Shown here in pieces: positions 2,623 to 64,000 of a stretch of 64,000 nucleotides of DNA. Position 1 is the first letter of the stretch. Every line of letters starts with the position of its first letter. The position numbers and the translations under genes are program-made. The notes under the pieces were generated by a model. It was not told the DNA's origin. It saw only the letters and a program-made list of their open reading frames with translations, and ran no database searches. The DNA comes from Phaeosaccion multiseriatum (lineage: Eukaryota > Protista > Ochrophyta, other classes): positions 434,001-498,000 of the forward strand of contig OZ218960.1 of NCBI GenBank assembly GCA_965112735.1, given 5' to 3'.

Positions 2623-4798
2623 ATGCCTAGGTCCAACTTCCTCCGCAAAAAGAATGCCAGTAATGTTGTGGGAGGGAAGGCGGGAGGGGACTTCAAGAGA
2701 CTGAAGGGCAAGGTGCGTGTGGTGATGATGTGATTGGGGGACTTCTTCGTGCGGGGAAGCGCAGGACATTGAACGGGAGGGAGTCTGTATCAAGATGTAT
2801 CGGTGTGAACGACACACTGCATCGGGTCTGGCGAATGGAGAGCACGAGCCGCGAGTGTCGGAGTCCTGAAGTGTCACACCGTGCCTGCCCCCCCTCCTCC
2901 TCTCCTCGCTCCCTCCCGTGCTGCAGGTGGGGAAGCGTGCTACTGAAAAAGCCAACCAGACCAATGTGAACTTCAAGAGTAAGCGCGTCAGGGTCACTGC
3001 ACAGGTATGCTGCCTAGCCGCCCCTGCCTCCTTCGCTCTCTCTTCCCCTCTCTCCGCCCCCCCTGTCTCTCGCTGTCCCCCTCTCCCTGTCTGTCTCTTT
3101 CTGCTATCCCTCTCTCCTCTCTATCTCTCTTTCACCCTCACCCTCACCCTCGCTCCCCCTCCCCATCGCAAACACCAAAAGAGCATCCTCACAGAGCACC
3201 GAGAGTCAGCCGTCCTCTCCTCCAAGGGCCAGAGTGTGAGTGAGCTCCTCACCATGCTGCACCACTACAATGCGAGCGTCAAACGCGAAGCCCTCCTTGG
3301 ACTCAAGAGCATCGCAGAGCGACACCCTCGCTTCGCCAGATCCAACTTCTCCTCCATCTCAGAGCCAACGTTAGAGGTGTTGGTCACAACGGACGCCGGG
3401 GCTAGAGCGGCCTTTCTCGGGTGAGTGAGGAGGGCGTACATACACACATGCAGGCACGCTCAGATTGGCAAGGCGTAACCCCCCCCCACTATGTGTCTCG
3501 CTGCTCCTCCCCCTCCTCCCCCTCCTAACCCTTCTCCTCCTGCTGCTCCTCCTCCTCCTCCTGCTCCTCCTCCTCCTCCTCCTCCTCCTCCTCCTGCTCC
3601 TCCTCCTCCTCCTCCTCCTCCTCCTCCCCCCTCACAGCCTGCAGGATGAGCTCCTGTTCTCCAAAAGCGTGATCATAGGCCCCTCGGCCATGGCCCCCTT
3701 TGCGGATCTCTACCTTGCCTACGTGGTCAGTGGCCTGACCTCTCTCCACAGGAGTGTGAGGCTGGACGGTCTGCAGCTGCTGGGCAGGTACGTCCGTACA
3801 TCCATCCTGTTGTTGAGGTGCTTCCCCCGTCTTTGCCTTCCCTTCACGCCTCGTGCCCCGCCCCTTCTCCTCCTCTCCTAATCAAGATGATGACGTAACT
3901 CCTAATCAAGATGATGACGTAACTTCCCCTCCTCTCCTAATCAAGATGATGACGTAACTTCCCCTCCTCTCCTAATCAAGATGATGACGTAACTTCCCCT
4001 CCTCTCCTAATCAAGATGATGACGTAACTTCCCCTCCTCTTCCCCCCCCACCCCACCCCCACCCCCACCCTCAGGCTGCTGGACACATTCCCCAGCCTGT
4101 TTTGCAGGATGTCTGCCACCCACCGTCTCCTGCCCAACTTCGCGGCTCTACTTGCCATAGACCCAACCGCCAAACGCTCCCAAACAAAGAAGTTCAGAGA
4201 GGCGGCTCTGCGTTGTCTACTCCTCTTGGTGCGAGGGGTGGACGCCCTCAGCAACGGTGGAGGGGGAGAGGGTGGAGCAGGAGGAGGAGGAGGTGGAGGC
4301 AGGGGGGGCAAGGCCAGTGGTGGTGGTGGTGGCGGTGGTACCACTGCTATTACTCCTGGTGCTGGTGCTGGTGCTGGTGCTGTATCACCAACTGCTGGTG
4401 CTGGTGCATTTAGTGCTGGAGGTGCTGAGGGAAGTGCGAGCAAGGGCGTGGGAGGGGCGGTGGTGGTAAGGGGGTTGGACAGCCCAATTGTCCTGTGCAG
4501 AGGAGGGCATCACGCCTCGGGGGCGGAGTTGGTTATGGGGGCAGCAGGGGGGGGGGATATGCTCGCCATTCGAGAGAGGGAAGAGGCCACGCTGCTGGTG
4601 GTGGAGCTGGACTCGGTCCTTGTAGCCCTCAAGAAGGTTTGGTCGGAGGCCACCTCCTCCGCCCTCATTCGTCAGGATCAGCAGTTGGTGGTGCAGCAGC
4701 AGCAACAGCAACAGCAGCAGCCGTCGCCGCACAAGAAGCAGCAGCAGGTGTTGGGCCAGGACGACCAGCGAAAGGCGCCCCAGCAGGCTCAAGCCGCA

Positions 4799-29561: not shown

Positions 29562-30135
29562 TATATTACACCCTTAAGTGCCATCTATGGTTGTCTAAAA
29601 GTAATGTCTCACCGCCCCGGGGAACTTAGCCCTCGAGGTCGTGTCCCTCTGACTCATCAGTTCTCCCCATTGGAACAAAGTTGATACCAGCCAGGATCCT
29701 GTGTCGAACCGATCGTTCGTGTCGGGCCCTCTGGAGCGCTACGGCTAATCGTCGCCGAATGACGCAAACAGCTCTCGCGTAAGCCCTCGTGTCAAGATGT
29801 TCGTGCCCCCCAGCCATGTGGGTGGCGAGTGTTTTGATAAACATCTGTGCTGACGGGCCAAATGCACCTTGCTGCTCCATCCCAAAAGGGACGAGATGAT
29901 ACCTCGTGGGGTCATAGTGGATGTCTCCACCCTGGCCCTCCATGCCTCCATGTGGCACAGGTGGAGGAGAGGCACGATTGGAGAACCAACAGTTGACCCC
30001 GAACGGCGGAGGCCGCCGAAGCGACCGCCGCCGAACAAGGGAGAACTCGCGCCAGAACCGACAACATGCCCCTCCGCGCAAGCAATGGGAGTGAGGAGGG
30101 ACAGGCCGGCCGCCCAAGAGGGGGACTTCACTCAC
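29562..30135 (-). mobile_element. 5'-truncated/degenerate CRE-like non-LTR retrotransposon (end of RLE domain plus 3' UTR)
   Basis: LVPFGMEQQGAFGPSAQMFIKTLA...RRRLAVALQRA matches the C-terminus of RLE-type retroposon proteins; its 3' UTR recurs, with TSD and A-tail, at 58214-58246/62641-62662. Confidence 0.78.
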
Positions 30136-45369: not shown

Positions 45370-46291
45370 TACGAGTGGTGGAGAGCAGGCCGGGATGCGA
45401 GCAAGGCGAACAGGTGAGCGAAAGTATTGGGGCGGGGGGGCAGATGGATGCCTGAAGCAGCGGGATAAGGATGCCCGGTCTCTGAGGTCTCAAAGCTTTT
45501 CGCACGCTGTGTGAGGGCCGTCCGTCCCTCATGCCTCTCCCTCGCCCACCCAGCCACCCACACTCACACTCACCGTATCCGAGGAGGTCGATGGCGTAGC
45601 ACGGCCCATCATGTTGTAGCTCAGCAATGTTCTTCCTAAAGTGATCGGCATTGCCTCCAAAGCCGTGTCTAATGAGCAAGAGGGGTGTAGGGTAGGGGGG
45701 ACGTGCCACATACAGAGAGGGGGAGAGTTACAGAGGAAGGAAGCAAGTCAGTAAGCACCACGCGCGTGACATTTATGGGCACTACAAACTTTGAGAGGCA
45801 ACCGGGCACTTCAGCCACAAGCAACCCGCATGTTGCCTTGTTTTACTCTCCCCGCTCGCTCAGGAAGAGGAAAGGCACAGACGCCACTATCTGACATGAA
45901 GAGCACAGACACCACTCACTTACACGAAGAGCATGGCGGGCCCCGGACTCCCCTCCCCTAAGACCTTGTATCGAATCGTGAAATCCCCCATTGGTCCCGA
46001 CCAGTTCCAGTAGCGGGTCGCCTTGCTCCACTCCTCAGGGAAGTTGTCCACAGCCGCTGCCACGGGAGAGGAGGAGGAGGAAGCCAGAGACATGGCAGGT
46101 CTCTTCCTGCCTACCCGTGCGTAGCTGCTGCTGCTGCTGGTGCTCCATGGTGAACTTCGGCACGCATCTCTCTGGGTGCCCTGCCCCCTTCCACATCCTC
46201 TCTGAGCCAGCAACTGCGGCGCAAGGGAGAACCCGCTACTCTGCTGCACACGCGGGGCCAACAAGCAGAGAGCAGCCAAAGCCACCCGCAT
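43105..46291 (-). CDS. Plastid-targeted pheophytinase-like alpha/beta hydrolase, about 10 exons
   Basis: Signal peptide then SSGFSL; LFVHGFGGNADHFRKN, YAIDLLGYGFSSKP, FLVCNSVG, GWGEVDPWEP, GHCPQDEAP. Confidence 0.9.
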
Positions 46292-50379: not shown

Positions 50380-51860
50380 TTGCTCTCCACCTAGGATAGG
50401 AGTAGCCGCATGGACAAGGTAATAGCAACCCCAAAGCCAGCCTGGCAGCCAGCCTTGTCTCTATTAGCTTTATCCGTGAGCCATCCTAAACGACCAACCT
50501 GCTGGGAGGTGAGTGAGAAACGGGCCACGCACCGTTTCTCACCGTACTTGCCTGGGCCTGGGCCATTGACATAATACTGACTTTCAACATCCCGGTCAGC
50601 CCTCCCTGCGCTTCTAACATCCCCCTGAACTAAACTATTGCGTGTCCCCACGCAACTCAAGCGGGTGCGCCGACTAAAAGCCTCCATGTTGCTTCCAATA
50701 AAAACGGATGAGAAATATGCAAAACTCCCCCAGGTGTGTGCGCCCGCTCCTCCAACACACACCCTCCTGTATTGGTGAGAAAATCCCACGACTCAAACTC
50801 ACCCACACAGGCTCACCATGACTCAAACTCACCCGCGCAATATCTGTCTCCACTCCTACGCGCCACCAGCTTTGCCAAAGCCTCATTGCGCACCACTAGT
50901 GCGGACTGCTAAAGTGTTTACTGATGTGCCTACAAGGCACCCAGACAGTCCCTAAAGCAGCCTTGCGAGACTGAGGGGACCCATGGGGGAGGTGGTGATG
51001 GTGATGATGGTGGTGAAGAGGGGGTGGGACAGGCGATAGGATGATGATGATGTGGATGATGATGATGATGATGTGGATGATGATGATGTGGAGCCCGTTC
51101 TCACCATATCTGCCTGGGCCTGGGCCATTGACATATGGACCATCTAATCTGAGGCCTTCCAACAGCATCGCCCGCCTCTGTTAGAAGTCGTGCTTTTGCT
51201 AGACTGGTACCTACCCTCTGAATTCAGACCGGGAGGTACCAGTCTAGCAAAAGCACGACTTCTAACAAGCCCATTGCTAGAAGTCGAACCCCCCCCCCCA
51301 CCGCACATAGTGGAGAGAAGTAACTCGCAGTCTGGGAATCAGACTAATGGGTCAGCAAGCCAGCAAGCCGGTTTCTTTGCACGACTTCTAACACCTCCTT
51401 CTAAAGAGGGATGCCGATACGGAGTCGGCCGCCAACGACGGGCGTCGGGCCATCCACATGATATGAGAGAGTAAGCCTGCCAGCGCATTTCCGATTCTTA
51501 GGGCACTTATCGTGTTTGGTACCAGTGTCTGCGCAGTAGGTACCACGGGGTTCTCTGCTGTACACTTACGTGCTGCAGGAGGGACAGCAGATGTCTCTGA
51601 CTAGTGCGTATGTTAACACACCTGCACTCTCGCCATTCCCCAGTATGCCACTCCACCAGGGTGTTTCCCACAACGATGTGTTAAGAGTCACGTTGAGGAC
51701 GACACCCTCCTCCTTCCTTAGCCAGCCTTGTCTCTATTAGCTTCATCCACGAGCCATCCCGAACAATCAGCCTGCTGGGAGTGAGTGAGAAACAGGCCAC
51801 TCACCGTTTCTCACCGTATCTGCCTGGGCCCGGGCCACTGAAAACACTACTGACTTTCAA
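50380..51860 (-). mobile_element. Inverted, fragmented copies of the Helitron-internal repeat family
   Basis: 50390-50970 is a diverged reverse complement of ~59955-60610; partial extra copies at ~51095-51165 and ~51720-51860. Confidence 0.7.
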
Positions 51861-52575
51861 CAGATGACGACGTCATTAAAGTTCTTCTACGCAATTGCTA
51901 CGGCTACCGAGACGCGGTTGCCAGCCCTCGCACATGGGGGAAGACAAAGCCACCGGCCCCGCCCGGTGTAGCTCTCGAACGTCAAACCTCCCACCCTCGC
52001 CGCTTCCCATCGGAGCTGCACAGGCCCAGGTATGTAGCCGCTCGATACCATCAGCCATCTGCGCCAGCTACGACACGGGAGTTGGGTGGGCTGCCCCACA
52101 GGAGCGATACACACCTGATCGGCGAAGATGACAGCAAGACGGTGGGTGAAAATCGAGGGATGGAGGGACCCGGCAACTGCCCAGACCTCGAACATACCCC
52201 TTCCTCCCGCCCCCGTCGCTGTTCGATAGGACTCCACGCTAAGGAAGGACAGCGACCCACCCGGGGCCTCCCCCTCTGCCAAGCAGTTCACCCACGCTCA
52301 CCTTCATTGAAGTTTCTGATTACTGTGACATCAATTTCGCTGGGGAAGAGCGAAGAGCGTGCAAAGAGCAAGCAGACGAGGAGTGTCACGAGTGTAAGAA
52401 AAGGACATATCGACGCAACAAGAGGCGAGATGGGAAGTTGCTGACACACACCTGTAAAACATTGTCCCGGTAACATACTAAGCCCGTTGGACAGGTCACA
52501 AAATACAGTCTTCACGGGGGTTTACACTACACCTGCTCCTGTTCACAGGAGACACTCTGCGCAAAAACCTAAAAC

Positions 52576-52992
52576 CTACCCCGTCGTAACACTACCGTCT
52601 CTAAAGCAGGGCAATGGCAGACACCTGGAACATATTCCCTCGCGTGAATACTTTCTTACGCGTTGGACATGTGCGATAAACTTATCCACAGGAAGTGTTC
52701 CCTTCATGAAGTTACAAGTCCTGCAACAAGAAACACAGTTGTCGTCATCATCATGATCTACACCGGTATATTCCTTACAGCTTTCGCGCTCCTCCTTTGA
52801 CCATCCACCACAGTAGTGACATGGAGCAGAGGTTATTCGTTGGAAGCTGGTCTTAGTGATGTGTACCTTTATCCCACGGCGCGCTGCTTGCGTCAGAAAA
52901 ACGCTCCTGCACTTCTTCGCTGCATATGTCTTGTACTTGAGGGTCTTCCGGTAGCGTCTCTTCTTCAAGGCAAGAGCGCGTTGGGGATCCAA
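52576..52992 (-). pseudogene. Zn-binding HNH endonuclease of the giant-virus/phage type, probably degenerate
   Basis: AARRGIKVHITKTSF..PCHYCG..GVDH..DNCVSCCRTCNFMKG..KFIAHVQRV. No in-frame ATG (ATG at 53014 is out of frame); the usual GY-containing spacer between the GVD and NCV motifs is missing. Confidence 0.78.
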
Positions 52993-53078
52993 TGCCGTGG
53001 CTTCTAGACGGCATCTTCTCCCCCTTCCTGGAAGGTCACATCCATTTGTGAGTATTTCGGATTCAAAGGTCGCTCACG

Positions 53079-56000
53079 TCAAGGGGCATCGGGTGCCGTC
53101 CGCTGGCCATCCAAAAAGTCGTTACGTTTCTGGGACGTGCCATCTGGGACGTCCAGTGGACGTCCGTGAGAGCAGGGGCGTGAGGGGGACGTCCGAAAAA
53201 CCAGACGTCCTCTGTACGTCCTTGGACAGGGTGGACGTACCCGGTACGTCCACCATGTCCTGCACGCACCCCGGACGTCCACTGGCCGTGCGTGCTGGGG
53301 ACGTGCATTGGGTCTTGTCCGTGCCGTGTACGTGTGTGTGTGTGTGTGCGTGTCGGTGAAGGCACGTGCTTGTATACCTCAGGTGGGGGCGCAACCTCGG
53401 CGTGGACTGTGCCACGACCATTGTGTAGACTAGAACAATTGATATTAGTATGCATTGCAGTAGACTGCTTACGAGGCGGAAGGCGAAGTTAGAGTGTGCT
53501 CTGTCTACGACTGCCGTTCCGATGTGAGTGGCGTGCTTAGCGGCTCTCGTCTTCTGGGAGAAGAGGGGCTCCGTTACGGAACCGCTGGGGCGCTCGCCGC
53601 TGCCTCCTCCTGCCCGTGGGTTCGGGGGCCGGCTTGACCTTGGAAAGCCTGCGCTTGTTGCTCCCAACTTTTTTGGCCTTCACCAACTTCTCCTTCCCTG
53701 CCCCCATTCCGGCCGTATTCGCCCGCTTGTGCTCCGCCCCCTCCTCCTGCTGCTGCTCGCCTGTCCTCTTCTGTCTTCTCGCGTTGGGGCCGGAGGTTAG
53801 AGAAGAGAGAGGTGTATCCGAGTTTGGTCCATCATCTCCTCTGAGACGAGCCCGCCTCTCACGTGGCTCATGCGCTTCTCCCACGGCTCCTCCCCGCTCC
53901 TCACTGCCTTTCTGCCTACCCCCCCTGCGCTGCTTCTCGGCCGGCGGAGCTTTTGTGTTGGTATCCTCGGCCGATGTTCGAAACTTCACGGAGACCTCTT
54001 CGTCCTCCGTATCCGACTCCTCCGCCTCCCCCCCCCGCCGCCTGCTGCTGCAGCTCCTTTCCCCTCCCTCGTTCCTTCGCTGTCGTCTCGCCTTGCTTCG
54101 GGGTCATTTCCCTTCTGGCCTCGGCCCGGAGGGTGGAAGACGGAGGCCTGCGTTGCCACCCCCCCCTTCGTCCCGCTGGATGGCTGGGCGCCCCCTGTCG
54201 CTCTCCTTCTCAGACACGGAACTCCCAAGTCTTCGCTCCCCTCGTCGGTGGACGACTGTCCTCCTCTTCCTTCTTCGTCCTTAGTCGAAGGAGAAGGTCT
54301 CGCGAGGGGGTGGGGCCACAGTTCGTGGGGTCTGCCCCCGGAGTTGGTGGGTGCTGGCCCCCCCTGGAGTGCACTTGGATCAATGTCGGGTTGATCCGTG
54401 GCTATGAAATCGTCACACAGGGCCTGGAGTGCCTATACAGGAGTCTCGGGCATCTCCGTGGCTCCTTCATCGTCAAATGTATCACATGTGTTATGGTCGT
54501 CTGCCATGTGCGGGGGCGGGAGGCGGCGGGAATGGGGGGGCGCGGGGGGTCGGAGTTGGGTGAGTACGTCATGTTCCACATCTTCGTCTCCTGCTTCGGT
54601 CTAAACATGCTTCCTCGCTTCCTGTCATATGTGCCCCTGCCCTGCACGCCTGGCCTACTCACCTCCATTGAACCGGGTTGACACGGGAGTACATCTAAAC
54701 ATCGCGATTGGACGCCCATCCGAGTTGCTGTATTGCTGGCCGACTCGATACCGATTCTGATGTAGCCCTTGGTAAAACTGTGGCGGAGGCGCGAGGAAAG
54801 GGGGGGGGGGGGGGGGCATGGAGTGGTACCGGTTAGTGTGATGTATGGGAAGTGGGCACAGGCGCGGTTGGGCGGGCGCAGTCTGATCATCCCTCCTTAT
54901 CTCTCATGCCCTCCCTCACCATGAAGATTGGCCCATTTCTCCATCCTCGCTAAAGATATTCTGATCCCACGTCCTGCCGGTCTGGTTGCCTTTCGGGCGA
55001 AGTCGATTCCTCCGTGTATGCGCGGGGGAGTGTACGTAACGCTAGGGCGGTTCCCCTGAGTTGATTCCCATCCAGCGCCGAAACTTGTTGTCTCATGGCG
55101 GCGGAAAAGCGGGCCCTCTCATCAATATCATCCAGTCTGGCTCTGGCTGCGTCAATCACTGCCTCAAGCGCAGCTGCAGTTCTTGGATCAAAAACGCCCT
55201 GTCGGAGGGGTGTGGAGATGCAGTCTCCTCCGTTGCCGTCGGCCCCCTCATCGCCAGAGGGTGGACTGTAGCCTGGACCCCCTCGCCTGGCAACACCAAC
55301 AGCAAGCAGCAGCAACGGCAACAGCACTGTGATCAGGTTCATTTCAACAGCCAACAGGGGTGGAGGTCCCGTAGCGTCGGGCAAGAGGCAGGTGGCTAGG
55401 TACGGAGGTGGCGTTCATGGAGGCGACAGTAGGGGCGGGACATTATGGAATCACCCCTCAGACTCACCGTCACCGTCGCTCATGGTGATGAAAGCAAGCA
55501 GGAAAAGTATGAAGGACGATGATGCCGGCGGTTGGTATTACTCTTAGAATACCGTTACTCTTTTTTTTTCAAGCCCATAATCGTCAACGGCGAAAAGCGA
55601 GTCCAGTGCAGGGGCCACAAGATGTACGCACTACCGATAGAGAGGCAGGAGAGAGGGCGAAGAGGGAGGGCCGGGTGATGGTGGTGGGTGACGGGAAGAA
55701 GCAAGTTTGATGCGGGGAGCCGAGTAGGCAGCAGCCGATACTACGGGGGAGGGGCGGCACGATGGACACGCGCATGAGAAAGCCGGTGGACGGAGGAGAG
55801 GCGATGGGTTAGGGAGCGGGGGCGCGGCGACATGACACCCTCCTCCGGGGCGGATCGGTGCGAAGGGGAGGGGGGGGGGAGGGGGGGGGGGGTAAGCAGA
55901 GGGACAAGAGGAGGAAGGGTGATGGGGGAGAGGCGAGAGTGTCGTGGAGAGGAAGGTGATGAGGGAAGAGTGGATGGTCTGAGTGCGGGAGGAGGCAGGA

Positions 56001-58190
56001 AGCGCGAACGATGGAGGACTTGGGACGAAAGAGGGAACAGACGGCGGATGGGCGGGTTGGAGGAAGCAGGTGCCAGGTGTGGTGGGTGACGGAGAGAGGA
56101 AGGGACGGTCGGAGGGTGAGGGTGGGGAGAGGAAGGGATGGGGGGCGAAGACGACAGTAGCATTGACAGTTGGGAGAGGGCGGGACAGGGTGTGTGGAGA
56201 CGCGATGTCTGCCTGCCGTAGTATTTATGTAGGAGGCGAGTGTCCAAAACTGACCTCCTCCTCGCCCACCCCCACACCCTCCCTCCCCCGCCTGTGCTGC
56301 ACTCCCTTCCCACGCTGAAGCCGCAGACCAGCCACTGACGGCCGTCATCGGCCTTGCCCGTCTCAGAGCACGAGGTGAGGAGGCTGGACGGAGTAGCCGG
56401 ACTTGACGAAGAGGGAGGGGAGGGTAGGGAGGGGGAGACCCAAAAGTAGGAACAAGAAGAGGGGAGTTTTTGGGGATGAGAGGGGGCAGGGAGTGCGAAA
56501 GGGAGAGGACCTGCGATGAAAGAGAGTGCACGGCCGGGAGGGTTGTTTGGGGAGAAGTATGGGATAGGCATGGTGGATGATGGCGGTACGGAGGGATGGT
56601 TGGGGAGTGAGAGCGGAGCGAGAGGGGCAGGCGGGCGAGGACGAGCAGCATAGAGTGGAGAGAGGAGAGAAAAGGAGTAGGAGAGTGCGCGGAGAAGCGA
56701 GGTCTCCCGGCTGAAGTATTTTAACAGAAGGTGCCCACGAATAACCCCTCCTCCCCACGCACCCTCACTCAGATCAGCTCCTCTCTCTCGGAGCTGGAGC
56801 ATACCCCCGGTCGGCACACTCCGCTGATGTACTGCAGCACTCCGACGTTGGTGCGGTTCTGCTCCAGCTCCGAGAGACAGAGGAGCTGATCTCCCTCCTT
56901 GGCTTTGGAGAGGACCGATCCAGGCACCGCAGGCAGGTAGGTGGGAGGGCAGCAGTGCCCAGGTTGTTGGTCAAGATGTCTGCCGCCTGGTGGGCCGTCT
57001 CCACATACTCCATGGAGATCGGCTCCAACTACATCCTCATCATGGGCCCTTCTGCGCCGGCTATCGACGCAGCTGCCATGGAGATCCTCCCCCGTCTCTC
57101 CTTGAACCCCGACCCACACCGAGGCCACAGACGCTGGCGGCCGACATAGACTCCGCCCGTCCATGGGCAAGAGGTGTGCACATTCGACGGAATAGCTGGG
57201 CGGGATGGGGAGCGAAGGTCGAACAGAATAAAAGGAGGGTGGACGGACGAGGCAGGGCCCAAGACGAAAGAGGGCGCCACCGGGCTAGATGGAGAAAAGG
57301 GCAGACAGAGGGGTCTTGCAGGATGGCTTGGTGGGTGCAGCAGAGCGGCGTGGATGGAGGGTATGTTGGAAATTTTCGGGGTAACAAGTGACTGACGCGG
57401 CGAAGCTGACCCCACGGCTATGACGACCCAACCATAGACGAATGAGTATACACGAACACCCCCCCCCCCCCCCCACATCCGTATGCACAACGAACCCCGC
57501 CTCGACAGAGCATAGCTTGGCGTAGGAGGAGGGAGAGGCGACAGTACAAGAGGAGACGAGTGAACGCACACGGAATGAAGCAGAGAAAGTGGCGCGGAGA
57601 CGTACGTCGAAATGAAGGGAGACAAGGCGGCCTGTCAAGCCCCTGACGGGGGGGCCCGACGCATTTCCAGTAGCACATCTGCCAGCCCCCCCCCCCCCCC
57701 CCCCCAGTAACACGCCACTGGCCGCCGGCTGGTAGCAGGTAGCACGTTGGCTGCAGCCGGCTGGTAGCAGATAGCACGCCGGCTGTGAGCAATACTAGCA
57801 GGTAGATAGTAATTGGTCCGCTACTGTCCCGGGGACGTACACAACCGCTGTGTGATGTTTTGAAAGTCAATGTATTATCCAAACCCAAACCCAACCAAAC
57901 ACCGCGCCCGCTGTTCTCGGCTTCACGCCCCTCCGCCACCCGGCTCACACGCACGTCCCTGGGACGTCCACTTGCGCCCGTGCGGGGGACGTCCACACGC
58001 GTTCTCGGCCAAAGCACGACCCGTCTAATGTACGCGCCTCGGACAGGCGCCGCTCGGACGTCCCGGGAACGTCCGAACGTCCCGGAACGTCCTTGGGTTT
58101 TTGGACGTTCCGAGTACGCCTCTTACCATGGCGTCCCAGAAACGTAACGACTTTTTGGATGGCCAGGGGACGGCACCCGATGCCCCTTGA
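53079..58190. mobile_element. 5.1 kb TIR element (~60-bp TIRs, subterminal GGACGTCC repeats, 2-bp TSD), no recognisable transposase
   Basis: 53077-53137 is the reverse complement of 58132-58192 with one mismatch; flanks ca-cg|TCAAGGGG...CCCCTTGA|cg-ca. Confidence 0.85.
54950..55384 (-). CDS. Uncharacterised ORF carried inside the TIR element
   Basis: 144-aa ATG ORF with non-repetitive, helical-looking composition; no family recognised. Confidence 0.3.
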   Translation of the reverse strand: MPDATGPPPLLAVEMNLITVLLPLLLLAVGVARRGGPGYSPPSGDEGADGNGGDCISTPLRQGVFDPRTAAALEAVIDAARARLDDIDERARFSAAMRQQVSALDGNQLRGTALALRTLPRAYTEESTSPERQPDRQDVGSEYL

Positions 58191-59244
58191 CGCAAGCAAT
58201 TTGTGTGCGTACTACATTACTTTTAGACAACCATAGATGGCACTTAGACCTATATAAGATTTCTTCGTTATCCCATATGCCTCTAAATATGAAAATGCTG
58301 CACGCTCAGCGCTCTAACCATATGCCTCTACTTTTGTGCCTCTACACTGTACAATTTTTCCTCCGGACCGGCTCCACACCGTCTTTTCGTGTATAGAAGT
58401 AAGCCCCCCAGTTTACACAGCAAAGTGTGCAGCAATAAGTACGTGCTTTGCAGTGTGCCTGATGCTCTTCATCTCTTCCTTACCCTTACCTATCTGTTAT
58501 GCCGCCAAGCCTTTTTTTTTTTCTCCTTACGCGGTTCCCCCTTCTCCTGTTCCTGATATGTCTCTTTTGTAGCGGACGTCGAGTCTTTCGTGTTCCCATC
58601 CACTTCCTCCACGCGGCACGTGCTGCCACCAGCACTTGAAGAAGTAGCCCTTGCAGTGAGGACGAGCAGTTGCCCTTGCAACAGCAAGCGTGGGTGTTGT
58701 GCCTGCAAGAGAGGACTTGATACAAGGTAAGCGGGCTGCCTTCTCCTCCTGTGTTTTCTTTCCTTCAGGCTTCAAATCTTTCTTCACTATGACCATTATT
58801 AAATCTCTTCGTCTCATCCTTAAGTGGCCGCCTTTACCTCCTGTGTTTTCTCCTTCAGGCTTTAATCTTTCTCCTTTCCCCCTCCTGTTGGAAGGCCTCA
58901 GATGAGATGGGCCATAAGTCAATGGCCCAGGCCCAGGCAGATACAGTGAGAACGGGTGGCGTGGCTCTCACTATCCTATGTGCGAAGGTGGTCGTTTAGG
59001 ACTAGCATGCGATAAGTTAATAGAGGCAAGGCTGGCTGCTAGGCTGGCTTTGGGGTTGCTGTTACCTTGTCCGTGTGTCTAGTTCTATCCTATCTGTAGG
59101 CGACAGCGCATGTCGGTCGTGCGTACGTCGTTTTACAACCCCAAAGGCCCGAAAGCAGCACTTAGCCAAGAGGCTTAGGCAGGGAAGGAAGAGGCGTGTT
59201 AGGGGAGCACCGTGCGGCACATACGCAGTGCCGTACGACGTGCG

Positions 59245-59930
59245 ACAGCAGCGGAGTTGTTGTTGCACGGAGAGGCGGGAGTGGAGAGAGAATTGCCGGG
59301 AGTGGTGTCTACAGCGGGCACAGCTTTCGAGTGTGGCAGCAGCACGGATGTTGTTGTTGCACGGAAATGGATGCTGAAGGTTGGTGGGCAGTGGAGAGAG
59401 AGAATTGCCGGGAGTGGTGTCTACAGCGGGCACAGCTTTCGAGTGTGGCAGCAGCACGGATGTTGTTGTTGCACGGAAATGGATGCTGGAGGTTGGTGGG
59501 CAGTGGAGAGAGAGAATTGCCGGGAGCGGTGTCTTACAGCGGGCACAGCTTTCGAGTGTGGCAGCAGCACGGATGTTGTTGTTGCACGGAAATGGATGCT
59601 GGAGGTTGGTGGGCAGTGGAGAGAGAGAATTGCCGGGAGTGGTGTCTACAGCGGGCACAGCTTTCGAGTGTGGCAGCAGCACGGATGTTGTTGTTGGACG
59701 GAAATGGATGCTGGAGTTTGGTGGGCAGGGGAGAGAGAGAATTGCCGGGAGCGGTGTCTTACAGCGGGCACGGCTTTCGAGTGTGACAGCAGCACGGATG
59801 TTGTTGTTGCACGGAAATGGATGCTGGAGGTTGGTGGGCAGTGGAGAGAGAGAGTTGCCGGGAGCGGTGTCTTACAGCGGGCACGGCTTTCGAGTGCGGC
59901 AGCAGCACGGATGTTGTTGTTGCACGGAGC
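59245..59930. repeat. ~112-113 bp tandem repeat, about 6 copies, inside the Helitron
   Basis: GAATTGCCGGGAG recurs at ~59290, 59402, 59514, 59627, 59740, 59853. Confidence 0.92.
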
Positions 59931-61180
59931 TTGGTGGGAGACAGAGAAGGATACTCGCAAGGCTGCTTTAGGGACTGTCTGGGTGCCTTGTAGACACACC
60001 AGTAAACACTTTAGCAGTCAGCATTAGTGGTGCGCAACGAGGCTTTGGCAACGCTGGTGGCGAGTAGGAGTGGAGAAAGATATGGCGCGGGTGAGTTTGA
60101 GTCGTGGGATCTTCTCATCCGTGAGCCTGTGTGGGTGAGTTTGAGTCGTGGGATTTTCTCATCAATACAGGGGGTGTGTGTGGGAGGAGCGGTCGCACAC
60201 ATCTGGGTGAGTGTTGCATAATGCTCATCCGTTTTCTTTTTTTGGAAGCAGCATGGAGGCTTGTGCGACAGTCGAGCTTCAGTAGGCGAATCCGCTTGTG
60301 TTGCGTGGGGACACGCAACAGTCTTGTCAAGGGGATGTTGGAAGTGGCGGATAGCTATTGGGGATGTTGGAAGGCCCCGGGATAGGCATTGGGGATGTTG
60401 GAAGGCCTCAGATGAGATGGGCCATAAGTCAATGGCCCAGGCCCAGGCAGATACAGTGAGAACGGGTGGCGTGGCTCTCACTATCCTATGTGCGAAGGTG
60501 GTCGTTTAGGACTAGCATGCGATAAGTTAATAGAGGCAAGGCTGGCTGCTAGGCTGGCTTTGGGGTTGCTGTTACCTTGTCCGTGTGTCTAGTTCTATCC
60601 TATCTGTAGGCGACAGCGCATGTCGGTCGTGCTTTCCTACACCCGGCTCTTTTGCTCCTGTGTTTTCTTTCCTTCAGGCTTTAAATCTTTTTCCTTTCCC
60701 CCTCTTTCCTACACCCGGCTACTAGAGGCTACGACAGCGAGAAGTGGGTCCTTCACTCCAACATAGGTAAGTACCCTTGCGTAGGCAAGTAGTGGATAAT
60801 TTTCTCTCTTTCAGGCTTTAAATCTTTCTCCTTTCCCCCTCTTTCCTACACCCGGCTACTAGAGGCTACGACAGCGAGGAGTGGGTCCTTCACTCCAACA
60901 CAGGTAAGTACCCTTGCGAAGGAAAGTAGAGGGTAGTTAGACTTCATTCAAAGCTGTTCCTTTACCATTTAAACCACTTGCCTTTTACCATTTACACGTG
61001 AATTACCAGTACCTTTTACCCTTCCTTTACCATTTAAACCACTTGCCTTTTACCATTTACACGTGTACCTTTACCATTGACACCACTTAAACCAATTTAC
61101 GTGCAAGATTTTCCCTTGACACCATTCAAACCAATTCACTTGCAAGATTTTCTTATCCACGAGATTCTATTATCTTTACA

Positions 61181-61950
61181 ATGCAGTGCGAGGACGGTGG
61201 CTTCCTGGAGTGCAAAAATGGCTCCACTGTTCCTCCTTCCTCACCTACAATTCCTGACCCTGTCGCCGATGCCAAACAAATCCCGACCTCTTTATCCTCC
61301 TCTTCCTTTTCCTGCCCCTCCACATTGCCCACCTCACATACTCTTCCTCCCACTATTGCCGAGTCCAAAAGCCCCGCTCCATCCCCTCCTCCAGTTTTGC
61401 TCCAGTCTTCGCCCCGCACTACCCCTCTCCATCCCGTTGCTCCCCTGTCCATGTCTTCATCAGAACGCTGTCGCCTTGCTAGGGTGCACCGCATGAACAT
61501 CCGTACTGCGCGCGCCTCGCTTCGTCACCAGTCCCACCCTGTCTCTTCCTCAACACTCCACCTCCACACCTCCACTTGCACCTCAGCCCCCTCCACGTGC
61601 CCCTCGTCGTCCTCCTCGTCACCCTCCACGTGCCCCTCGTCGCCCTCCTCGTCACCCGCATACTACCCCTGATCGGCCAGCCCATATTGGCATTGTCTCC
61701 CATGAGGAATGTTCCGCCCATCCGCACAGGTACCTGGATGACCCTCCCTTCACTCCCAGAGACATTTCCAACATCTGCCCCCACTGCTCCACCCGTCTCC
61801 TCGATGGAGAAACCACCTCCTGCTGTAACAAAGGCCAGCACGTCATAGAACCTCTTCCCGACCTTCCCCAAGACATGATAGACCGTCTTACCACCTGCAC
61901 TCGCTTCTACAAAGACCACCGCAAGATGAACGGATTGTTCAGCTTCACTA
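61181..61950 (+). pseudogene. Helitron Rep-helicase N-terminal fragment (frameshifted, truncated)
   Basis: A frame not in the ORF track reads ICPHCSTRLLDGETTSCCNKGQHVIEPLPDLP...FYKDHRKMNGLFSFT (Cys at 61776), the typical RepHel Zn-finger/YNxxFAFT region. Confidence 0.82.
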
Positions 61951-62697
61951 TAAGATTTCTTTTACCCGTACGCCTCCAAATGTGCCAAAATGCTGCACGC
62001 TCAGCGCTCTAACCATATGCCTCTACGATTTTCCTCCGGAACGGCTCCCCACTGCCTTTTCCTGTAGTACAGGCTCCCCGGTACCTCGTCCAGCACGCTG
62101 GGCGCCCCCTTCGTGCGGGAAAATCCGCTTGAAGATGACTTTTCACCCGCTGGCACTTTCTGGCCAGTACCCACGCTGTGCCTATTTTCTTTTTTGTAGC
62201 TTCTCTGTCCCCCCCCCTTTCTCTTCGTCTGTCTTCTCTCCTACAGCCACCTCTTCTCCTTCCCATCCTCTATCTTCTCTCCTGCAGACTTCGAGTCTTT
62301 CGCCTTCCCACCCATTTCCTCCACGCGGCAGCCGATTTCCTGCATGGATTACCTGCAGGCCCACAAGCTCAAGTCCGGAGACGCATCGCAGCCAGCCAGA
62401 CCGTTATCTGGAGACGCATCGCATCGCAGCCAGACTAACCTCCTCCCCCCCCCCCCCTTGCTCCTTCCACATCCTGCACTCGCCATTTGTGAGTCCCTCC
62501 TACTTTTGCTCCTCCTGCGCGCCTCCCCTCCCCCTTTCACCTTCCTATCCTCCACTCTCCCTTCTCCCACTTCTTGCCAACTCCAACCCTCTTCTCTCCT
62601 CCTCCTCCCTGCCGAGGGCGCAGCCCGAAGCAACACCTTGTAAGGGTGTAATATAAAAACAACGTACTACATACACCAAGTAGGACCAGTGTTTGTG

Positions 62698-64000
62698 ATG
62701 TCTAACGTTCTAGAGGGACAGCGTAGAATGCTCACGGCCTTCTTCCACGCCACGGGAGGACCCGACTGGTCTAACATCGCAGGATGGAACACGAAAGCAC
62801 CAGTAGAAAACTGGGCCGGAGTGACGGTAGAGAATGACTATGTTGTGAAGCTCAATCTGTGGGCGAACCGCCTCAAAGGTGAGAGAGACGTGATTATGGT
62901 TGTTCCGCCTGAGGTCCTGAAGAGTATTCTGAAGTATTTCCAGAATGTTCGGAAGTTTTCTCTCTGTTCATGCATCTAGATGTGTTGGGTCTAGAATATT
63001 CGGGAAGGACAATCAAAGCGGGACAAGAGAAGGCACGAGGCGCGGCATGGTGTGGTAGTTCAGCGACCCGTTCGCGTCCCTTTCACTTGATATTAGTGTG
63101 ACCAAAGAACTTTCCTTGCTCCGCAGGGACCATTCCGTTGGAGTTGGGGAAGCTGACAGAGCTTCGAGAACTCCACCTGTCAAAGAACAATCTAGAAGGT
63201 AGGTGGTACGCGTACCTGTTCGCGTCCCATTCACTTGATATTAGTGTGACTCAAGAACTTTCCTCCGCTCCGCAGGGAGCATTCCGAAGGAGTTGGGGAA
63301 GCTTTCAAACCTTCGAGAACTTAAACTGTCATGGAACTCTCTAGAAGGTGAGTGGTACGCGAACCCGTTCGCGTCCCTTTCACTTGATGTAAGTATGGCT
63401 GAAGAACTTTCCTCCGCTCCGCAGGGAACATTCCGCCCGAGCTTGGAAGTCTTGAGAACCTGGCGGTGCTCAACCTGCGGGCCAACGAGCTCACTGGTAA
63501 GTGGTACGCACACCCGTTCGCGTCCCTTTGACTTGATATTAGTGTGACCAAAGAACTTTCCCCCGCTCCATAGGGAGCATTCCAGCTGAGCTTGGAGGTC
63601 TGGAGAAGCTTGAGAAGTTGGGCCTCGCCGACAACAAGCTCACTGGTGAGTGGTACGCACACCCGTCGGCGTCCCTTTCACTTGATTTGAGTATGACCAA
63701 AGAACTGTCCTCCGCTTCGCAGGGAACATTCCACCCGAGCTTAGACGTCTGGGAAATCTTACGGTTTTAAGCCTCTTCTCCAACAAGATCACTGGTGAGT
63801 GGTACGCACACCCGTTCGCGTCCTCTTGACTTGATATTTGTATGACTGAAGAACTATCCTCACATCTCAGGGAGGATTCCGCCGCAATTTGGACAGCTTT
63901 CCAACCTTCGAGAACTTTGGCTCTCCGGGAACCGTCTAGAAGGTGAGTGGTACGCACACCCGTTCGCGTCCCTTTCACCTGATGTTAGTGTGACCAAAGA
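62698..64000 (+). CDS. LRR receptor-like gene (ROCO-like N-terminus possible): capping exon plus 72-nt single-LRR exons; runs off the window
   Basis: Exon 62698-62878 (LTAFFHATGGPDW..GW..W.GVTV) then 63127-63198, 63276-63347, 63425-63496, 63574-63645, 63723-63794, 63871-63942, each a GxIPxxxxxLxxLxxLxLxxNx(L/I)x repeat, phase-1 GT-AG introns. Confidence 0.93.

Follow-up and report, generated by a model that had tools for sequence, protein, structure and literature searches.

Two genes facing away from each other lie near the right end of the window, a 64,000-nucleotide stretch of contig OZ218960.1. One is a small endonuclease gene of the HNH (His-Me finger) superfamily on the minus strand, and the other, on the plus strand, is a leucine-rich repeat (LRR) gene in which each repeat has an exon of its own. 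The region between them is filled by three insertions, one nested within another. In strains without these insertions the two genes start within about 100 bp of each other, and a second nuclear locus, from an unrelated marine eukaryote, combines the same two gene types. The pair is tentatively read here as a defence locus made of a receptor and a nuclease that are expressed together.

A divergent pair beneath three insertions

Part of the LRR exon array is present in seven public runs from three studies, and four of these (X4, X5, X6 and X7) were compared with the window. X4 is probably the window's own sample and hence not independent; X6 and X7 are two samples from one study. A 1,369-base X7 contig (record 25) differs from the window at 10 positions, so the organism itself is present in that run. 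X5 is labelled 'DNA?' and no run is annotated as RNA; its GT-AG joints and the low depth over introns are the reason for taking it as RNA.

The first-pass annotation had proposed that three insertions with definable ends hide a head-to-head pair, and both parts of the proposal hold. The element with terminal inverted repeats (TIRs) is bounded by 61-bp repeats that are 98% alike (53077-53137 and 58132-58192), two bases longer on each side than the 53079-58190 first given, and at 53077 five further X4 contigs leave the window sequence for a mixture of flanks. The retroelement stub is framed by a 10-bp direct repeat, its target duplication (58208-58217 and 62663-62672). A second stub copy (29575-29607, minus strand) lacks the 58245-62640 insert, which places the bounds of that insert between two T's; shorter copies of the insert, with 58733 joined to 62273, occur in X4 and X5. 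Presence and nesting of the insertions are as annotated. The labels CRE (stub) and Helitron (insert) were not confirmed, as there is no Pfam match in the one Helitron-like open reading frame (ORF) and the four TIR-element ORFs scanned; the Helitron label goes back to the resemblance of one Cys-rich ORF.

Two X6 contigs and one X7 contig run from 53076 into letters matching 58199-58217 and on to 62673-62683, that is, directly into DNA upstream of the LRR gene. The X6 consensus differs by one letter, and the X7 contig has 52 bases on the nuclease side and 183 beyond, compared over the first 30 loose letters. Because these contigs lack all three insertions, the head-to-head pair exists as DNA and is no artefact of reconstruction; among the X4 to X7 contigs, none reaches from the nuclease domain to an LRR exon in one piece. 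The spacer length of about 136 bp given earlier has to be replaced, since the count began at a codon other than ATG (52992). The likely nuclease start is ATG 53045, or an ATG within a stretch that the window has lost beside 53025, and the distance from start to start in strains without the insertions is about 75-100 bp. The divergent host spacers of 167 and 216 bp to which it had been compared were not reproduced, only candidate ATGs being available.

The LRR exon array and the nuclease gene

All six visible array exons are 72 nt long, encode one LRR each and share the same phase; the five complete introns measure 77, 77, 77, 77 and 76 bp. Mean identity is 61% among exons and 83% among introns, and the near-constant introns described in the first-pass annotation stand out further when intron interiors (85% alike) are set against four-fold degenerate exon sites (48%, 50/103). 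Given this difference the introns are homogenised or constrained, as expected with crossovers and conversions anchored there. The motif ACGC-N10-GCGT lies in all five complete introns, its six occurrences in the window all falling within the array. The 77-nt intron pattern had no match in viral and prokaryote collections, and no minus-strand LRR exon motif, which as an inverted exon would be a sign of shuffling, was found in the visible 1.3 kb of the array. The first LRR intron closes with a degenerate but complete copy of the 77-bp repeat intron (63050-63126).

Arrays of similar build occur in brown algae. The available text of PMC3341825 and PMC11378527 describes Type I arrays of ROCO and LRR-only genes, which share with the window a 24-residue LRR per 72-bp exon, the GxIPxxL consensus, an N-terminal cap and membership of a multi-copy family. 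The window array differs in its 76-77-bp introns, which are more conserved than silent exon sites, and in having no inverted intronic exons in its visible part. The ROC-COR domain of LRR-ROCO genes is not visible here, the window ending inside the gene. The portions available of these two papers mention no nuclease neighbour; within them, the same exon type is described for Ectocarpus with no shuffling enzyme named (PMC3341825), and no report of a recombinase or a somatic recombinant locus is said to exist, alternative splicing being preferred (PMC11378527).

The nuclease allele of the window is decayed, as had been noted, with three lesions instead of the two described: a stop and frameshift near 53003-53005 accompanied by a deletion beside 53025, a further deletion near 52907-52916 and, near 52750, the loss of a loop of about seven residues. 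The Cys, Asp and Asn residues of the core are kept, and the conserved Arg and Tyr are lost with the loop. Contigs from other runs are less damaged. At 53002 the X5, X6 and X7 contigs part from the window sequence, X6 with additional letters beside 53025; on inspection by eye, these alleles have no stop at about 53003-53005 and a longer N-terminus. The extra X5 letters at 52907-52916 can be read as the Tyr-Arg-Trp motif of the subfamily, and the X5, X6 and X7 contigs carry 18-40 gap letters, including an insertion near 52750, with 18-26 extra bases at the Arg/Tyr loop. Other strains may hold intact alleles with complete reading frames.

GT-AG joints downstream of the nuclease in X5, together with low depth over 52122-52289, identify it as a spliced host gene with 3' introns. 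Loose ends behind the LRR donors 63646 and 63943 read as exon starts in the same run, so that both gene types are transcribed there; contigs cannot reveal whether a promoter is shared, nor the level or strand of the transcripts. A further donor inside the coding region, at 52866 (joint 52340-52866, X5), is used as an alternative and gives a transcript without most of the nuclease domain, which could be a regulatory off form.

The best PHROG match of the window nuclease is endonuclease VII (PHROG 1035, E 4e-9). It has no Pfam match, and a word-based search with its protein returned no relative. Among solved chains, PacI is the best match (E 1.6e-5) for a profile built from 13 single-domain relatives. 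A fold search with the model of the L011 nuclease, from the second locus described below (mean predicted local distance difference test, pLDDT, 72.5), also puts PacI first, but at a modest Z of 6.8, under the caution level of 8 (root-mean-square deviation 4.7, 95 aligned). The G-x-D-R...Y...N core is kept in 277 of the 280 relatives that carry the CxxCN motif, and G-x-D-H, with the catalytic His, occurs in 0 of the 280. Two CxxC pairs and this core, with Tyr replacing His, are found in the family and in L011. By its sequence the nuclease is therefore a PacI-type, tyrosine-type His-Me finger with predicted activity. This refines the earlier description as a virus-type HNH nuclease; relatives are indeed plentiful in giant viruses and phages (6,854 matches at E<=0.001). 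T4 endonuclease VII (PHROG 1035) shares the superfamily and gave the best PHROG match, but its catalytic His is absent here, and the sequence profile and, modestly, the fold search favour PacI. The role of Holliday-junction resolvase suggested by that label was dropped accordingly.

The available text of PMC5714182 describes the PacI group (group 20) as mostly of giant viruses, with Tyr instead of the catalytic His, and PacI itself as working without a methyltransferase and relying on a site-free host; its table counts six eukaryote members in group 20, for which this part of the source gives no context. PacI is a homodimer cleaving an 8-bp palindrome (available parts of PMC3384342 and PMC5415892). 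With these nucleases (PDB 3ldy/3m7k) the present family shares the C-x-x-C, G-x-D-R...Y...N...C-x-x-C-N core with Tyr for His, a similar size, giant-virus relatives and a predicted homodimer. It differs in being a spliced nuclear gene beside an LRR array, and the window copy in lacking the Arg and Tyr. The homodimer predicted for the L011 family scored 0.58 against 0.01 for the best control, with contacts agreeing 100% and pLDDT 79; 20 out of 30 solved dimers attain this mark, as does one of 23 monomers, and the L011 score may reflect the solved PacI dimer.

A W-x-x-F-x-x-Q motif (in its longer form W-x-x-F-x-x-Q-A) ahead of the first CxxC marks a single-domain subfamily of 30 among 281 proteins, 29 of them shorter than 250 residues. 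Of 137 loci, L011 and L021 alone have it, with none in the other 135, which are mostly viral; this suggests a subfamily of hosts. Thirteen short nucleases (from L011 995-1405 and proteins P0001-P0014), mostly on short contigs, form a well-supported clade with an invariant W-R-T-G C-terminus; identity within this marine subfamily is 49-60%. A search for longer, fused forms of the nuclease yielded four proteins, none with an LRR family listed, which is weak evidence.

Table 1. Features at the nuclease-LRR locus (window positions)
Feature	Position	Strand	Basis or remark
Second GT-AG intron, 3' of nuclease stop	52115..52301	-	X5 joint 52111 to 52299, cut +3
GT-AG intron, nuclease 3' untranslated region	52340..52451	-	X5 joints, canonical ends
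PacI-type His-Me (HNH) nuclease gene, broken allele	52576..53045	-	PHROG match, alignments, PacI top PDB match of family profile
Divergent spacer, piece 1	53046..53076		Runs into piece 2 in X6/X7 contigs
Unclassified TIR element	53077..58192		61-bp TIRs; copies elsewhere with other flanks; absent in X6/X7
Divergent spacer, piece 2	58193..58217		58208-58217 is the first target-duplication copy; 58193-58198 missing in X6/X7
49-bp 3' stub of likely non-LTR (non-long terminal repeat) retroelement (58218-58244 + 62641-62662) and second target copy (62663-62672)	58218..62672	+	Uninterrupted copy at 29575-29607
Helitron-like insert between two T's of the stub	58245..62640	+	Empty site in second stub copy
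Divergent spacer, piece 3	62673..62697		First 11 letters found in X6/X7 loose ends
LRR gene, first exon; N-terminal cap, no obvious signal peptide	62698..62878	+	Atlas top match LRR N-terminal domain, 0.95
Six 72-bp one-LRR exons with 76-77-bp near-identical introns; extends past window end	63127..64000	+	Exon/intron comparison; X5 loose ends

The window is intron-rich eukaryotic DNA that becomes repeat-rich from about 49.8 kb on. A Pfam scan of 98 of its 185 candidate ORFs found, in the left part, housekeeping genes (tetrapyrrole methylase, adenylosuccinate synthetase, myosin and an alpha/beta hydrolase), and no viral gene; the right end of the locus lies beyond the window. The signal-peptide-like start of the hydrolase makes an alga with a secondary plastid the likely host. 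The minus-strand ORF 366-1487 has a weak LRR_6 match under the Pfam cut-off. A high-copy repeat at 58884-60632, also found at 50392-50969, 51094-51165 and 51720-51863, contains identical direct repeats of 237 bp with a minisatellite inside; in five of its copies the first letters are TGTTG, as in LTRs, it is very deep in X4 and X5, and it is possibly a small non-autonomous LTR element. A 219-bp insert at 51175-51393 with a 90-bp palindrome, bypassed by contigs in X4 and X6, is likely a miniature inverted-repeat transposable element.

A second locus with both gene types

The first-pass annotation had named repeated adjacency of nuclease and LRR array as a check on the pairing. A metagenome scan with the nuclease sequence as sole query, and no LRR sequence, returned 21 loci. 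L011 and L021, which are 99.6% alike, represent one nuclear locus in a marine eukaryote, with an adjoining PB1 kinase. L021 has seven 72-bp exons (47-1088), each with one LRR in the same phase and separated by related introns, in a gene that apparently ends near 1265 in a short cap; the nuclease begins 2.9 kb past it on the same strand. The one independent nuclear locus thus has an LRR array (1/1). Of the remaining 135 of the 137 loci, most of them viral and some redundant, one (L123) has LRR genes nearby and four have a single loose motif match. The chance of the L021 adjacency under random placement is about 0.4-5% with assumed genome sizes and array counts, and is higher if both gene types cluster in variable regions. 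The adjacency recurs, then, but in tandem, and descent from a common pair has no tree support; the quick tree neither establishes nor rules out that the two nucleases go back to one ancestor, and the two loci have no third gene in common. The different orientation, the lack of a third common gene and the lack of a supported tree join all argue against a shared ancestral cassette.

The introns of L021 follow an ordinary pattern (66% identity, against 76% for exons and 73% for four-fold sites), and TTGCAA occurs in five of six. They are unrelated to those of the window (49% identity, 48% for shuffled controls). Relative to L011, the L021 nuclease (4248-4542) has a one-base insertion, either an assembly error or a broken allele. 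The giant-virus contig L123 (3579-10056) holds, next to one another, a capsid gene, a PacI-type nuclease with tandem domains and two LRR genes that lack introns. L013, taken as eukaryotic by its GC content, was rejected because it reads as a giant-virus-like contig; it carries an ORF that is presumably TFIIS-like.

Readings of the pair

The best explanation, though we hold it with less than even confidence, is a defence locus in which receptor and nuclease are co-expressed. It is preferred because of the empty-site contigs, the spliced and less damaged alleles, the PacI-type family and the adjacency at L021. The nuclease and the LRR cassette gene, head-to-head and less than about 100 bp apart, would share a promoter, and the variable LRR protein could act as sensor or guard. 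The nuclease, a predicted dimer, would either cleave the DNA of an invader or cause the death of the infected cell. Ordinary unequal crossing-over and gene conversion would maintain the likeness of the constant introns and would swap whole exons without the nuclease, and the window copy, with its three lesions and three insertions in the promoter, would be a decayed one. The head-to-head sensor/executor pairs of plant nucleotide-binding LRR receptors are similar in their divergent arrangement, short common upstream region and variable LRR partner; the partner here is a stand-alone nuclease, and no NB-ARC or TIR domain is seen.

Several observations weigh against this explanation. With a unique-contig depth of about 480-550 in X4, summed depth is about 1,400 for the nuclease (at 52789), 10,959 for the first LRR exon, inflated by neighbouring repeats, and 66,418 and 49,312 for the array. 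Summed contig depth is a rough guide rather than a copy number and misses copies less than 80% alike, but it suggests about three nuclease copies and many more LRR genes. Even so, most LRR units cannot adjoin a close nuclease copy. One X4 contig has a segment from 53020 with unrelated DNA replacing the nuclease body. Another loose end in X4, at 53068, is similar to spacer piece 2 and points to a second spacer copy; the two ends may belong to one contig, and that copy would then be without the nuclease body. Short divergent spacers are perhaps common here, since candidate ATGs at 46291 and 46354 are 62 bp apart, the second gene there being unconfirmed. Only one independent eukaryote locus is at hand for comparison, its pair is tandem where that of the window is divergent, a quick 127-row tree gives no support for joining the two nucleases, and in L123 a giant virus also has LRR genes beside such a nuclease.

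Co-location without functional coupling is a reading that we consider possible but less likely than a defence locus: both would be fast-turnover genes that gathered in a repeat-rich region, the pair being passed on and multiplied from then on as one unit. The locus is crowded with mobile elements, paralogous contigs also carry the flanking repeat fragments at 51394-51830, L021 differs in orientation with no third common gene, and most LRR units have no nuclease close by. Chance gathering sits less well with the spacer of less than about 100 bp in strains without the insertions, and with the fact that the single independent nuclear locus, found without an LRR query, also has an array. A selfish, homing-type nuclease of viral origin, which would cut LRR loci that lack it and copy itself in together with the start of the neighbouring gene, is unlikely. 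Such enzymes would fit the abundance of relatives in giant viruses and phages, and decayed copies are found alongside seemingly intact ones, as homing cycles would produce. However, the gene carries spliceosomal introns and exists in no more than about three copies, neither a target site nor element ends were found, and the identity and invariant C-terminal motif of the marine subfamily are as for a retained host gene. The related suggestion of a virus-derived or mobile unit carrying both genes found nothing in its favour beyond the ancestry of the nuclease, given that the two loci share no third gene.

It is equally doubtful that the nuclease drives exon shuffling by cutting in or near the constant introns, with repair by homologous recombination swapping, duplicating or deleting LRR exons. 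The excess of intron over four-fold-site identity in the window speaks for it, a dimeric enzyme would read symmetric sites such as ACGC-N10-GCGT and TTGCAA, and the parts available of PMC3341825 and PMC11378527 name no enzyme for the shuffling of LRRs in brown algae. These palindromes are, however, short and chosen after the fact. The introns had been put forward as the target of the nuclease, a proposal that found no support: no intron sequence is common to both arrays, and the L021 introns are less alike than their exons and four-fold sites. Folding of the introns lacked significance (z between -1.67 and +0.64 as DNA; as RNA, -2.41 in one of six), which ruled out a hairpin or cruciform target. 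Steady cutting would be expected to erode its target rather than conserve it, and the joints in array contigs fit paralogues as well as somatic change. The few nuclease copies beside far more LRR units, and the difference in orientation between the two organisms, also tell against shuffling. The wider proposal that unrelated microbial eukaryotes domesticated a giant-virus PacI-type nuclease beside LRR cassettes, where cuts at symmetric intron sites would lead to exon shuffling, is likewise improbable.

Literature searches, in part judged by title and the start of the abstract, found no paper on a pair of nuclease and LRR array. To our knowledge, little has been learnt of the ways in which algae and other protists detect giant viruses and halt them. 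A small nuclease recurring beside LRR arrays bears both on this defence and on receptor shuffling in algae. A methylase-free restriction-type enzyme in a eukaryote, or an enzyme of shuffling, would, if true, be a new layer of protist immunity, and the nuclease would in the latter case be the missing enzyme for algal receptor diversification.

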